From Patescibacteria group bacterium (GTDB lineage Bacteria; Patescibacteriota; Minisyncoccia; 2-02-FULL-40-12; IGHO2-01-FULL-4-A): a DNA stretch of 64,000 nucleotides. The DNA lies in the NCBI GenBank assembly GCA_038064015.1, contig JBBTUB010000013.1, positions 6,502-70,501 on the forward strand, read 5' to 3'. A program made the position numbers. Each line of letters starts with the position of its first letter. The first letter of the stretch is position 1. Shown here piece after piece: positions 51,401-57,400 of the stretch.

Positions 51401-54400
51401 ATATAATATCATAAGTTTTCGCATGTACAATTTTTGGCTGAGCAGAAAGAAGTTTCGCATTGATCGCAACTGGCTGTTTTATACGCTCCGGCCCCAGCGC
51501 CAAATGTTTCGGAATCTTCCCGGGATTTTTTATCAAGACATCAAAGTGCACTACGGATCGATTCAGGGTATTTCGGGACCCGTGCACATCTCGCCCTATC
51601 GCATCAAGCACTATGGGTATGTCTATCGCGAAGAGGTTGATAGAAAAATACGTATGTACAAAGACATTGACAAGGAAAAAGATTATGCCACGATTGATCC
51701 GAATATGGGGCATATCATGTATTTTCCTTTCATTGAATTTCGAAGTGCATTCTTCAATAGAATATGGATTGTGCTTCAGAATTGGGTTGCCAAGATGCTA
51801 GATGTTACGTTACAATTTAAGAGAAAATATATTCGTGGATACCAATTCTTCAAACAATAAAAAAGATCAATGCGCCGTTGTCGTGTCATCGTTTGATGGC
51901 AATGAAGACTTGTGGAAGCCATTTTTTACACTGTTTTTTCGCTATTGGCCGGACTGCCCTTTTCCAGTCTATTTAATTAGCAATGAAAAAAAATATCTGG
52001 ATGATCGCGTTACTACTATTTCTGTAGGAAAAGATATCAGCTGGGCGGACACTACAAAAAAAGCCCTGCAACAAATTTCTGAACCCTATATACTCTGGCT
52101 ATTAGATGATCTCTTTTTGGAACATCCAACGGACACCGACTATGTGCTGAAACTCTTTGAGGATATGAAAATTCGCCATGCGGCATGCTACTACCTCACC
52201 CCACGGGCCATGCCCAATGAACGATATGTTTCGTTACTTGCGGGGTTGTGGGATAAGAAAGTTTTTCTAGACCTTCTGAAATCCGGAGAAAACCCTTGGC
52301 AGATGGAAATCGAAGGCACCGAACGCTCACGTTCTTTTCTGATGCCGTTTCTTGCGGTTGATACTCCGGCGCTGCACCATCCGGAGCGTACGGCCATTGT
52401 CCGGGGCAAATGGACTTGGGAAGGCATGATGCTTTGTCGTAAAGAGCGGATGCCTGTTGATTTTAAGAAACGCGGCATAGACTACGCTCGAAAGTGGCGA
52501 TCGCTCAAAGACCAGTTTCGCAAGAAGATAAAGCGTTATTTGAAGATGTAAAAATTGCGATTGCGGGGAATATATTCGATAGATTCGATTTTTGTTCCCG
52601 CACCCTCCAGATTTTTTAGGAGTTTTATTGCTCCCGGAAATCCTTCTTCAGCAACTTGAGAAGCAAAGAGAAAGTGTTTGGCATTAAACCATTTTTTTTC
52701 AATGACCAAATCAAGCGCGGCCGTCGAGCTTTCACTTAACGCCCAGGTAGAAATAAATAGATCAGCGGTCAACGTGTAATCTTTCAAAAAACCAACGGGA
52801 ATAATAGAAATACAACCTTCAGCAATTTCCTGCCCTGGCCCGGTAATAAGATGGACGCGATTGCTGTCTTTGAGTACCGTGGCCAAGTAAAGCCATTGAA
52901 GGCAAGCCATGAAAGTTGTATCAATTAAAACATACGTACTGCGGGGATTTAGTTTGGCATACATGTGAGCCATGGTTCCGTAGCCACCGCCCCACTCCAC
53001 GATATGGTTGAGTGATGAGGGGTCAACGTTGGTGGTTTGGCGAAACATTTCCAGATGGTACAGCGTGTGAATAGCGTTGTGAGATGTTTTGTAATCGCGA
53101 TACATGAGTCTCGGTTTGCCCATATACTCTTCCCCCAGTAACATTCGAAGCGTTTCGGGCGGCAACTTTTTTTCAAGGAAAGATAACTGTGTAGCAGGCC
53201 AACGGCCTCGTACGTTGGGAACCATAGTGAATGCGATGGAGGGGTTAGTGAGAAAGTTAAACGGGGGACATGGAAGCATCTCCTTTTCGAGGCGCTCGAG
53301 GTGACCTTGCCATTGTGGTACGATATATTTCGTTTCGTTCTGGTTCTGTGCCAAACGATATTGTGTCTCGAATTTGTTACTGAGCTCAAGATAACGGGCG
53401 TACTGCCATTGTTTTCCCCGGGCGATTGACCGATAGGATGGAAGGAGAGAGAAAAACAGCAGTGCGTTTGTGAACGCACTGACAAATCTTCGATACCTTC
53501 TGGATACCGCTTTCAGGAGATGTGCGCCACTTGTGAGTTTTTTAATGTTGAGTATCATACCATTGAATTGTTTTTGTTAGTCCATCGCGAAATGATGTGC
53601 TTGCAGTAAACCCGAATTCTGACATGGCTTTGCTCACGTCAAGCGCCCGGCGTGGCTGACCATCGGGCTTCGTGGTATCCCATCTCAATTCGCCTCGGTA
53701 GTCCATGATGTCGCATATCAATTCCGCCAGTGCTCTTATTGTAATTTCCATACCCGAACCAAGATTGACCGGTTCTGGTTTATTGTATCGTTCTGTCGCG
53801 AGCACGATACCCTCGGCTGCATCTTCGACATACAAAAATTCCCGGCTCGCTTTGCCAGTTCCCCATACCTCTATAAATGATTGGTGTTCTTTTTTGGCGT
53901 TGTCGATTTTTAAAATTAGCGCCGGAATGACATGCGACCGATACGAATCAAAATGGTCGCCGGGTCCGTACAGATTTACCTGAAGCAGGTGAATTACGTT
54001 CATACCGTACTGTGAACGATATGCTTGGCCTTGCACGAGCATCATCTTCTTGGAGATACCGTAGGGACCGTTGGTTTCTTCGGGGTATCCGTTCCAAAGA
54101 TTTTCTTCGCGAAAGGGGATGGGAGAAAATTTTGGATATTCGCAGACCGTGCCGATACCGACAAATTTTTCCACGCCTTCCAGCCGAGCCGCTTCCATGA
54201 TTTGCGTGCTCATCATAGTATTGTGGTAAAAAATTTCTCCGCCTTTTTCACGATTCATGGTAATACCTCCCGTGATCCCAGCCGCATGGATGATTACGTC
54301 TTGCCCAACAACGGCTTTTTGGCAATCTTCCAAGTGAATCAAATTCAGCTCGGTTGAGCGAGGCGCAAAAATATTTTGTTCCGGCACCCCGTTTTCCAGG

Positions 54401-57400
54401 AGTTTTTGAACAATATTTTTTCCAAGAAATCCCCCGCCTCCAGTCACAAGAATTTTCTTATTTAGCAAATACATCAAGAATTGTTTTTATATCTTTTTGC
54501 GAAAGTTCGGGATCACAGCTCAGATAGAGACCTTGCCGATGTACGATCTGCGCATTGGGAAGTTCGACGGGTACTTCGCCATGTTTTCTATAGAATGGCT
54601 GTTCGGTGATATCACCCCCAACAATAGGGCGGATTTCTACCTTGCCCTTTGCCTGCTTGATTAATTTTTCCAATATTTTCTTTGATCGGCACACCAAAGG
54701 TACTGAAAATGCGGAAATAAAATCGATGTGATCGTAGCGGAGTGGAATATACTTCTCGGTATTCGCATACAATACCTTCGCCATCTGTAAAAAGTTTTTG
54801 TTGCGTTTCTTTGCTATTTCTGGGAAATACTTCAGTTGTAGGTTTCCCAGAAATCCTTGAATCTCCGTCGGGCGGAGATTGTAACCTAACTCATAAAAGG
54901 TGAATCGACTGTAAAAATGATTGACACGATGTTGTTTTCGCAAGGCAACCTGTTCTTTACTTGGGATACTACGATCCCATCCATGTGCTCGCACCATGCG
55001 TAGCATGGAGGAAAACTTTGGATCATCTGTGCATATTGCACCGCCCTCAATCGTTGAGAGGTGATGTCCTACAAAAAAAGAGAACGTGCTTGCGTAGCTG
55101 TAATTTCCTAGACGTTTGCCCCGATACACGGTGCCAAGTCCCTCACAGTTATCTTCGATGAGCAGAATCTTATGCTTTTTGCAGAGTTGTTCGATCTTGT
55201 CTAGGTCATCGCAAAAGCCCAGTAGATTTGTCAGAAAAATCGCTTGGAGTGAATGCTTCACGAGAACTTTTTTTAGTTGCGCACTCGACACGTTCAGTGT
55301 GTTAAGCTCGACGTCAATAGGCACCGGTTTTAGGCCTAGCTGCATAAGCGGCATGACATTGGTTGCCCATGTGACTGCGGAGAATCCAACGCTATCTCCG
55401 CGTTTCAGCTTGCCCATGTTCATAAGTGCCTGAATCAGTCCAAGATTAGCACTGCTGCCGCTATGAAAAAAAATAGAATCTCTCCTTCCCTGATATTTTG
55501 CGAATTGCCGTTCAAACGATTCGACAACGTCGCCACAGCTGAATCGCTTGGCTGAACGAATAAAGCGGATCAAGGCCTCCTTGGTTTCTTGCTCGCGATA
55601 AAATGACGATTCTATAAGCTTGATCATATGCGTTTTTCTGTGTTTACCTTTCCATGGTCGATGGTGAGTTCAAAATCTGAGATATCGGTTAAGCCCGTTC
55701 CGTGCCCAATAGTAATGATGGTTATCGTGCCACGGTGCTTTTGCAATGCTTCGATAATGAGTCCTTCCGATTCCTTGTCCAGTGCGCTGGTTGGTTCATC
55801 GAGAACCAACATCTGTGGCTTCCGGACAAGTGCGCGCGCAAGCGCTATACGCTGACGTTGTCCGCCCGAGAGCTGCAATCCGCGTTCGCCGACTTGCGTT
55901 TCAAATTTTTCCGGCAATGCCATAATCGTGTCGTAGATGTTCGCCATTTTTGCGGCCGTTTCTATTTCCTGCAGCGAAAGCGTTTCGTTGAAATAACGTA
56001 TATTTTCGGAGATGGTTCCATTGATCAGAAATACTTCTTGAGGAACATATGCGATATTCTTTCGCCATTCCGCAAGGCTAATGTCACGTGCGGGGATTCC
56101 ATCTAAGGCAATCAATCCATCGGTCGGCTCCAAAAGGCGCAGGGTCAGGTCCGCAAAAGTGGATTTTCCCATGCCTGAGGGACCCGTAACAGCGACGACA
56201 GCTCCTCGGGGGATAGCTATATTAATATTGCGAAGCACTGATTCGCGGTCCCGATAGGCGAAGGTGACGTCTTTGAACGAAAGTTCGTGTGCAAAATGGA
56301 ATGACTGTTTTCCTCCTTCATCCTCCCGGTTGCTCACAATTTCGTTTCGGTAGCGGAGTGTCGTTTCAAAATAAGGGATAAGCCCTGACATGGATTGTGC
56401 TTGGCCTTGAAGCGACTGAAAGAAAGAAAACATTTTTTGGATCAAATACACGACGATGGCAAACGCAGCGATGTCAAACGATGGCTGCTTGTAGGTCACG
56501 AAAAACAGTATTGCTATGAATAGAATACCAACCGGTTCAGTAATGCTTCCTGAGAAATAGTTGTACAAAGCCGCTCGGGTATGCGCGTTGCGCATTTTAT
56601 GAAAGTACATACGTGCTTGTTCTGAGAGCGCCGATTCAATCCCAAAAGCTTTTGCCACCTTTGCTCCGATGATATGCTCGGAAATGTAATGGCTTGCGTC
56701 GCGGTAGGTCTGACCAATGGAAGTCGCAATTTTGCGCGTTCGATGCAAGATGGGTTTTATCGTCCAAAACAGTACGATACCGAGGCCGAGGGTAATAAGT
56801 GTGATACCTGCGGAGATATTGAATGCAACCAACGCATAGGTCAAAATGCTCGTCGCCAAGAGCGCGCTCGTATTGATTTGCGAAATAATATTGGCACTTT
56901 GTCGGACGTCAAACAGTAACATGCGTTCCAAATAGCCCACCTTTTGTCCCATAAGAAAGCTCCAGCGTGTCGCCAACGTACGGCGGTACAGGTCGTTGCA
57001 GAGTTTTTCTTCAAAATCTGCAGTCGTACGATCGCTCAAGTATTTGGCGGAGAATTGAACACCTGCCTTGCAGAAAAAAAGTAAGACGATGAACCCCAGA
57101 AGATACGCGGGACCGAAGGGAATATGGAAGAAACGAAACAGCCCCTGAATTGTATCGGTGATAACATTGGCTTCTTTGATCGGTTGATCGGTGAGGAGTG
57201 CGAAGAGCGGTATCGCAGTACCAACACCGATACTGCCCGAAAAGCCGGCCAGCAACCCCAAACATATCGTGAGCGCAAGTTTCCCGTAGTAGCCGCGCAA
57301 TGCTATACGAAGCACTCGTCCCGCCCGCCAGAGTTTTTCTTTTTGTAGTGCCATAGTTACTTAAGATGATACAGAAAAATTGATCTTCCCACTACTGCCG

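Follow-up and report, generated by a model that had tools for sequence, protein, structure and literature searches.

A predicted ColD-type sugar 3-dehydratase and its coupled Fcl-family reductase in a glycan locus of a Patescibacteria group bacterium

A putative route to a GDP-3,6-dideoxyhexose

The window analysed here is a stretch of 64,000 nucleotides (nt) from contig JBBTUB010000013.1 (positions 6,502 to 70,501) of a metagenome-assembled genome (MAG) of a Patescibacteria group bacterium (GCA_038064015.1). It encodes two neighbouring proteins, a DegT-like protein and a short-chain dehydrogenase/reductase (SDR) of the Fcl/ColC family. Together with a GDP-mannose 4,6-dehydratase (GMD) of the same contig, these two proteins probably make a GDP-3,6-dideoxyhexose of the colitose type, and their genes would represent the committed steps of this branch. 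A pathway of this kind had been proposed in an earlier note on this DNA. Both open reading frames (ORFs) lie on the minus strand where that note had placed them (Table 1), and the motifs that it quoted are present. Sequence outside the window was read from CAYIGI010000001.1 (GCA_964362975.1, 100,853 bp), in which the window corresponds to positions 18838-82837. Near-identical contigs come from samples with names beginning 'Hain_H51_01um'.

The DegT-like protein, a predicted ColD-type 3-dehydratase

The DegT-like protein matches the Pfam family DegT_DnrJ_EryC1 (PF01041) with 215 bits across residues 13-385. Its best match among all PDB chains is ColD (WbdK), the GDP-4-keto-6-deoxy-D-mannose 3-dehydratase of Escherichia coli O55 (2gms, 204 bits, E-value 4e-59; also 3b8x, 2r0t and 3gr9). 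The score against E1 (DdhC/RfbH/AscC), the CDP-6-deoxy-L-threo-D-glycero-4-hexulose 3-dehydrase, is 137 bits, and ordinary sugar aminotransferases reach at most 100 bits. The motif FFVGHHLSTIEGG comprises residues 184-196. In the HMMER alignment the query segment FSFFVGHHLSTIEGG falls on FSSFYSHHIATMEGG of ColD, and the first His coincides with the catalytic His188 of ColD, whose position is pinned by the mutant chains H188N (3b8x) and H188K (2r0t). The same residue of the query is also aligned to the active-site His of E1. A second DegT paralog of the window, which serves as an internal control, has Lys in this column (SFQAIKAITTADGG), so the claim that the HH motif occupies the position of the Schiff-base Lys holds. 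As His188 is kept in all 76 family members, its match to the ColD His is not due to chance. Residues D159, E162 and S183 are invariant in the family and the same in ColD. An exchange of His for Lys at this site defines the nucleotide-sugar 3-dehydratases (PMC8987622).

Several features are shared with ColD: the catalytic His in the same column, the motifs EDNCE and SxxxxHH, the lack of an iron-sulphur (Fe-S) motif and a length of 389 amino acid residues (aa) compared with 390. Ser187 of ColD is replaced by Gly in the query and by Gly or Ala across the family. Among the family-invariant residues, 17 are common to ColD only and 9 to E1 only, a weak lean towards ColD. E1 likewise has His in place of Lys within a DegT/aspartate-aminotransferase fold and is a C3 deoxygenase dependent on pyridoxamine 5'-phosphate (PMP). 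In contrast to the query, it is a protein of 437 aa and carries a [2Fe-2S] motif of four Cys, with the pattern C-X57-C-X1-C-X7-C. The E1 segment GRDCYCAPGCDNTCKK is aligned to GWDR-SIPSKEQVALRK of the query, where the cluster Cys columns are filled by R, I and L (R, L/I and L/I across the family). The fourth column, C161 of EDNCE, is the sole one retained and is a Cys in ColD too. With three of the four [2Fe-2S] ligand Cys missing, the four-Cys motif of E1 is absent and an E1-type identity is ruled out. The earlier note had named a ColD/E1 type; the first half of this label stands and the second does not. Given ColD as the best solved relative and the absence of three of the four Fe-S Cys, the DegT-like protein is a predicted ColD-type, not E1-type, His-for-Lys sugar 3-dehydratase. 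Both E1 and SpnQ depend on the four-Cys motif and require a reductase (E3 in the case of E1), whereas ColD functions without a cluster and has its PMP regenerated with glutamate (PMC8987622). None of the annotated neighbour genes encodes an E3-like or ferredoxin-reductase partner.

In the NCBI record the protein is named 'DegT/DnrJ/EryC1/StrS family aminotransferase', and its fold and cofactor residues are indeed common to sugar aminotransferases. SpnQ, moreover, shows an aminotransferase side activity without its reductase (PMC8987622). Nonetheless, it is most improbable that the protein is an aminotransferase and forms a perosamine-like GDP-4-amino-4,6-dideoxyhexose. Every family member has His in place of the Schiff-base Lys, ColD and E1 showed no transaminase activity under the conditions described (PMC8987622), and a separate Lys-bearing DegT aminotransferase is encoded 5.6 kb away. 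The best NCBIfam matches of this Lys-type paralog are PseC, WecE-like and ArnB, all sub-cutoff; it may act as an aminotransferase on a GDP- or dTDP-4-keto sugar.

The Fcl-family SDR, colitose or fucose synthase

The SDR gene directly follows the dehydratase gene, as expected of ColC, the GDP-L-colitose synthase of Yersinia pseudotuberculosis (Alam, Beyer and Liu 2004, cited in PMC8987622). The two genes overlap by 17 nt if the SDR starts at the ATG at 54474 as in the NCBI record (310 aa), or by 20 nt if it starts at a TTG (311 aa), in agreement with the translational coupling that had been claimed for them. The SDR contains the motifs NLYGPGDHFDSYRSHVIPAL and KPDGQPRRALDV, and its best PDB match is the GDP-L-fucose synthase 7ll6 (177 bits). 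Residues T110, C112, Y139, K143, N168 and H182 align to S107, C109, Y136, K140, N165 and H179 of E. coli Fcl (1bsv). In common with ColC/Fcl, the protein has an SDR fold and keeps both the catalytic triad (Ser/Thr-Tyr-Lys) and the Cys/His pair for epimerisation. Its score with the NCBIfam model GDPFucSynFcl (NF047922), 262 bits, falls short of the equivalog cutoff of 500. The two ColD-linked relatives that were scored, L020 (261.6 bits) and L008 (213.7 bits), are also sub-cutoff.

The closest database relatives of the SDR are 64-69% identical and mostly proteins of the candidate phyla radiation (CPR) named GDP-L-fucose synthase, which is also the NCBI name of the SDR itself. By sequence it is nearest to CPR Fcl enzymes that are 65-67% identical. 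Six of these Fcl relatives were checked, and all stand in ManC-GMD-Fcl or GMD-Fcl order without a ColD-like gene, with a GT11 fucosyltransferase next in four of the six; by overall similarity the SDR therefore looks like Fcl. It might be an ordinary GDP-L-fucose synthase, or have a dual Fcl/ColC role, with the locus making GDP-L-fucose from the GMD product. The product of the ColD-like enzyme would then be reduced by the same promiscuous SDR or passed to the C-methyltransferases or the aminotransferase of the region. The protein has every residue that 3,5-epimerisation and 4-reduction require, and a dual role is possible as the contig parts examined showed no further Fcl-like gene. The rooted tree described below also fits a fucose synthase, as the fucose-operon clade nests inside the ColD-linked grade. 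We nevertheless consider this alternative rather unlikely. The SDR gene overlaps the gene of a 3-dehydratase, whereas GMD is located in another operon; a GT11 fucosyltransferase was not found within the window; and both the phylogeny of the SDR and one of its residues set it apart from the fucose-operon enzymes.

In a neighbour-joining tree the six fucose-operon Fcl form a clade that excludes the query SDR (bootstrap 95/100), and the eleven labelled ColD-linked SDRs likewise lie outside it. Those designated L015, L020, L027, L047, L049, L083, P0132, P0136, P0143 and P0152 are 49-69% identical to the query and form a basal grade. When the tree is rooted, the fucose clade nests inside this grade, which indicates that the Fcl and ColC functions are evolutionarily close. 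The query groups with P0122 and P0132 (bootstrap 98/100). The P0132 locus comprises GMD, a ColD-like gene, one gene on the opposite strand, the SDR, a faintly GT11-like glycosyltransferase (GT), a methyltransferase and PMT_2, and the P0152 locus consists of GMD, DegT and SDR. For P0122 (contig L092), the closest relative of the SDR with 81% identity, the upstream context is cut off by the contig end. The genes downstream of it encode counterparts of two proteins of the query operon, an ABC exporter (50% identity) and a protein of 339 aa (41% identity to the 340-aa protein).

The query SDR has His at residue 163 (window ~53989-53991), five residues before the NLYGP loop. This position separates the groups cleanly, with His in all 11 ColD-linked SDRs and Tyr in all six fucose-operon Fcl. 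Position 166 is mostly Met in the ColD-linked set (Gln in the query, Pro in one) and Pro in each of the six Fcl. Both positions are candidate specificity determinants. The ColC identity proposed earlier is supported by the conserved ColD partner and by the placement outside the fucose clade; on the other side stand the high identity to CPR Fcl and a comparison that included no authentic ColC. The ColC label of the SDR rests on operon coupling and the neighbour-joining tree, and a fucose or dual role is possible.

Gene context and nucleotide specificity of the dehydratase family

That the window holds neither GMD nor ManC, as had been noted, is literally true. The earlier note had asked for GMD to be sought elsewhere, and the contig does carry this gene at a distance of 179 nt from the window end, with 410.8 bits to TIGR01472 (cutoff 415). 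It heads an operon (L001:8392-11263) with the Methyltransf_24 protein and the adjoining C-methyltransferase. The query locus resembles that of ColD in containing a GMD and in having an Fcl-like reductase as the next gene, and differs from it in that the GMD is not adjacent.

The ColD-like family is large. At least 7,264 proteins at E <=1e-20 were found among 8,000 candidates scored, most of them of ~390 aa and 58-62% identical, and a metagenome scan yielded at least 521 confirmed ColD-like loci. Members occur in other CPR lineages as well, with MAGs of Peregrinibacteria and Gammaproteobacteria among their sources. The rarity claimed in the earlier note therefore fails at the gene level. More than 80 related loci were compared at the level of ORFs. 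Many of them show a recurring order, with a true GMD directly upstream of the ColD-like gene and an Fcl-like SDR directly downstream. These upstream GMDs are 47-57% identical to the GMD of the contig. A neighbour-joining tree of the dehydratases with E1 as its root places E. coli ColD as sister to all members of the family; the query, in contrast to ColD, belongs to a very large and uncharacterised metagenomic clade. The deep branches of this tree are almost all GMD-adjacent, and the nearest neighbour of the query, L027, has the order GMD, ColD-like, NUDIX, Fcl-like. We infer GDP as the nucleotide of the query from its gene context: a GMD lies ~8.5 kb away on the same contig, and in many homologous loci, among them those of the nearest tree neighbours, a GMD adjoins the ColD-like gene.

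Within the family, a derived sub-branch (L008, L012, L024 and L034, with close ColD-like members at 57-61% identity) may perform cluster-free 3-deoxygenation on a different nucleotide sugar. Upstream of its ColD-like genes stands an SDR other than GMD, with CDP- and dTDP-glucose 4,6-dehydratases as its top matches (~157 bits, sub-cutoff). Nucleotide specificity thus probably varies within the family and is not readable from sequence. In L008 and L024 the ColD-like gene is followed by a distinct class of Fcl-like SDR, 35-43% identical to that of the window.

This sub-branch bears on the question of whether the query itself could use another nucleotide sugar, e.g. dTDP- or CDP-4-keto-6-deoxy-D-glucose, and so form a non-GDP 3,6-dideoxyhexose. 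RmlB (381 bits, above cutoff) and an RmlA-like protein (295 bits, cutoff 361) are encoded on the same contig, and many homologs bear the automatic name CDP-sugar 3-dehydrase given by JGI. We judge such a specificity improbable: E1 and SpnQ, the known CDP/dTDP 3-dehydratases, rely on a [2Fe-2S] cluster together with a reductase (PMC8987622), and the corresponding motif is missing here. Furthermore, the SDR encoded next to it is a member of the Fcl family of GDP-sugar enzymes, the nearest tree neighbours of the query adjoin a GMD, and genes of a CDP-glucose pathway were not seen in the window and the contig parts examined.

Proposed pathway

In the GDP-dideoxyhexose route that we favour, GMD would convert GDP-mannose, for which a source was not found, to GDP-4-keto-6-deoxy-D-mannose. 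On the ColD-type enzyme, PMP would form a Schiff base with the C4 keto group, His188 as general base would take the C4' proton, and the C3 hydroxyl would leave. Subsequent hydrolysis would release GDP-4-keto-3,6-dideoxy-D-mannose and ammonia. As PMP would be regenerated from pyridoxal 5'-phosphate (PLP) with glutamate, neither an Fe-S cluster nor an E3-type reductase would be needed. The SDR would then epimerise C5 (Cys112/His182) and reduce C4 (Thr110/Tyr139/Lys143), with GDP-L-colitose as the product of the predicted stereochemistry. The sugar probably enters a lipid-linked surface glycan handled by the co-transcribed ABC exporter and GT-C transferase, possibly after O-methylation by the 340-aa protein encoded downstream.

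A number of points weigh against this route. The case is built on sequence analysis. The dehydratase shares only about 40% of its residues with E. coli ColD, as judged by eye from the alignment, and lies under every NCBIfam equivalog cutoff (RfbH: 203 bits, cutoff 423); by these thresholds it counts as related to ColD but not as its ortholog. Compared with the CPR Fcl enzymes of GMD-Fcl-GT11 fucose operons, the SDR has 65-67% identity. Both trees are neighbour-joining only, and that of the SDR is without an authentic ColC reference. Part of the dehydratase family, the derived sub-branch, follows a non-GMD SDR instead of GMD, and the GMD of the contig is not adjacent to the pair, being ~8.5 kb off in another operon with two methyltransferases. 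The RmlA-like and RmlB proteins of the contig would produce a dTDP-4-keto-6-deoxyhexose. Finally, ~93 kb of the 100.8-kb contig, including the window, 9.5 kb beyond it and 10 kb upstream, revealed neither ManC nor ManB; the upstream side is a ribosomal operon without ManC. The full pathway that had been envisaged is therefore only partly accounted for: GMD is encoded on the contig, but ManC and ManB were absent from the ~93 kb read.

Operon and genomic surroundings

The dehydratase and SDR genes lie in the middle of a tight operon of five genes in the order PMT_2 GT-C glycosyltransferase, ABC (ATP-binding cassette) exporter, DegT-like protein, SDR and 340-aa protein, with junctions of +2, -4, -17 and -17 nt (Table 1). 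The stop codon of the exporter gene overlaps the dehydratase start as ATGA, and the genes of the SDR and the 340-aa protein overlap by 17 nt. In NCBIfam the exporter scores 278 bits with the HepA family, 254 bits with MsbA and 183 bits with PglK, each under its cutoff. It is probably a flippase for a lipid-linked glycan. PMT_2 genes are also found near ColD-like/SDR pairs in L004 and L096.

Table 1 Genes of the putative 3,6-dideoxyhexose locus and its neighbourhood (window coordinates)
Feature	Coordinates	Strand	Basis
Possible S-adenosylmethionine (SAM)-dependent sugar O-methyltransferase, 340 aa, last operon gene	52536-53558	minus	TIGR04371, sub-cutoff
Predicted Fcl/ColC-family NAD(P)H-dependent SDR epimerase/4-reductase	53542-54477	minus	NCBIfam, PDB, catalytic residues
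Predicted ColD-type NDP-4-keto-6-deoxyhexose 3-dehydratase, PMP/PLP-dependent, 389 aa	54458-55627	minus	Pfam, PDB matches, His188
Fused ABC exporter (MsbA/PglK/HepA-like)	55624-57354	minus	Pfam ABC_membrane and ABC_tran
GT-C fold glycosyltransferase, PMT_2/ArnT-like, 564 aa, first operon gene	57357-59051	minus	Pfam PMT_2, 56.7 bits
NUDIX hydrolase, divergent from operon	59070-59522	plus	Pfam NUDIX PF00293, 47 bits
Second DegT-family protein with Schiff-base Lys	61218-62309		DegT paralog; convergent with GMD/C-methyltransferase operon
C-methyltransferase, TylC3-type	62294-63556	minus	Pfam Methyltransf_13 and Methyltransf_14
Methyltransf_24 protein	starts 63553, runs past window end	minus	GMD operon member
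GMD, 328 aa	window-equivalent ~64179-65165 (= L001:8392-9378)	minus	TIGR01472

The last gene of the operon had been described as a sugar O-methyltransferase. In favour of this, the 340-aa protein reaches 34.2 bits with TIGR04371 (cutoff 44) and contains VEWGGGYG, which by eye resembles the class-I SAM motif; it has, however, no Pfam match, and the function can be suggested only weakly.

Divergent from the operon, the NUDIX hydrolase of the earlier note is confirmed by its match to PF00293, whereas the link drawn there to the GDP-mannose mannosyl hydrolases (Gmm/WcaH) is unsupported by the NCBIfam and PDB matches. The protein scores 25.5 bits with Gmm (NF011963, cutoff 146) and 28.5 bits with MutT, and its best PDB matches are MutT-like at no more than 35 bits, with an 8-oxo-dGTPase domain at the top. 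NUDIX genes also adjoin ColD-like genes in L027 and L059, and owing to this recurrence a functional link between the two is possible.

The window opens in the spc ribosomal operon and from ~26 kb on consists of one large glycan-biosynthesis region of roughly 45 kb. This region comprises many GT4 and GT2 genes, two TylC3-type C-methyltransferases, a carbamoyltransferase and the Lys-type DegT aminotransferase. Beyond the window a polyprenyl glycosylphosphotransferase and a Wzy_C/TPR protein are encoded as well. The GC content falls to 0.415-0.46 over positions 42001-56000, compared with ~0.50-0.53 across much of 2-34 kb, as would fit a glycan island that is variable or was acquired horizontally. 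The stretches 31077-32666, 13200-14200 and 37557-39484 contain only short, overlapping, low-confidence ORFs. A GT4-like gene appears to be split into a part of 350 aa (37557-38609) and a fragment of 162 aa (38996-39484). Pseudogenes or assembly problems may account for both observations.

The second TylC3-type C-methyltransferase is located at 35160-36578. Three loci with GMD/ColD-like pairs (L075, L077 and L078) have homologs of these enzymes nearby, as do the ColD-like genes of L013, L026 and L042. Besides the 3,6-dideoxy branch, the region may therefore supply a branched-chain (C-methyl) GDP-deoxysugar, possibly one of the virenose type. A NodU/CmcH-type carbamoyltransferase (46527-48359) lies between two paralogous GDSL-like proteins (45392-46579 and 49376-50521), with a class-I methyltransferase (48346-49212) beside it; another Patescibacteria contig (L088) has a carbamoyltransferase near ManC-GMD-Fcl. 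The cluster suggests O-carbamoylation or acyl editing of the glycan. At L001:95-2872, outside the window on its far side, RmlB, the RmlA-like protein (241 aa), an RmlD-like protein (250 aa) and a small cupin are encoded in a row. The RmlA-like and RmlD-like proteins are short and under their equivalog cutoffs, and the row as a whole is a predicted compact pathway of the dTDP-rhamnose type.

Implications

3,6-Dideoxyhexoses are known mainly from the O-antigens of enterobacteria and Vibrio. Patescibacteria are generally described as lacking lipopolysaccharide (LPS), and the product of the locus is therefore not expected to be an O-antigen sugar. Should the proposed route hold, the surface of a groundwater Patescibacterium would carry a 3,6-dideoxyhexose of the colitose type. 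A more elaborate outcome, which we regard as quite unlikely and offer as speculation, would be a heavily tailored and previously undescribed 3,6-dideoxyhexose, O-methylated by the co-transcribed 340-aa protein and/or C-methylated by the TylC3-type enzymes of the GMD operon. It would be part of a non-LPS surface glycoconjugate of the CPR, built on a lipid carrier and delivered by the ABC flippase and the GT-C transferase. Linked to the same speculation, a corollary of the SDR tree would be that the fucose synthases of the CPR arose within a ColC-like, ColD-coupled lineage.

The literature searched contained no study of colitose in Patescibacteria; both words occurred together only in an unrelated rumen study. 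The enzymes and the pathway belong to an already known type. ColD and ColC have previously been predicted in the reduced-genome symbiont Ca. Organicella (PMC8204192), and with this precedent and the abundance of the family across phyla the surprise is limited. Surface glycans plausibly mediate the attachment of CPR bacteria to their hosts, and hence their building blocks are worth knowing. The public names of both genes, 'aminotransferase' and 'GDP-L-fucose synthase', are generic and misleading. With the tests of His for Lys and of the missing Cys, thousands of metagenomic proteins would be renamed as 3-dehydratases of the ColD type.

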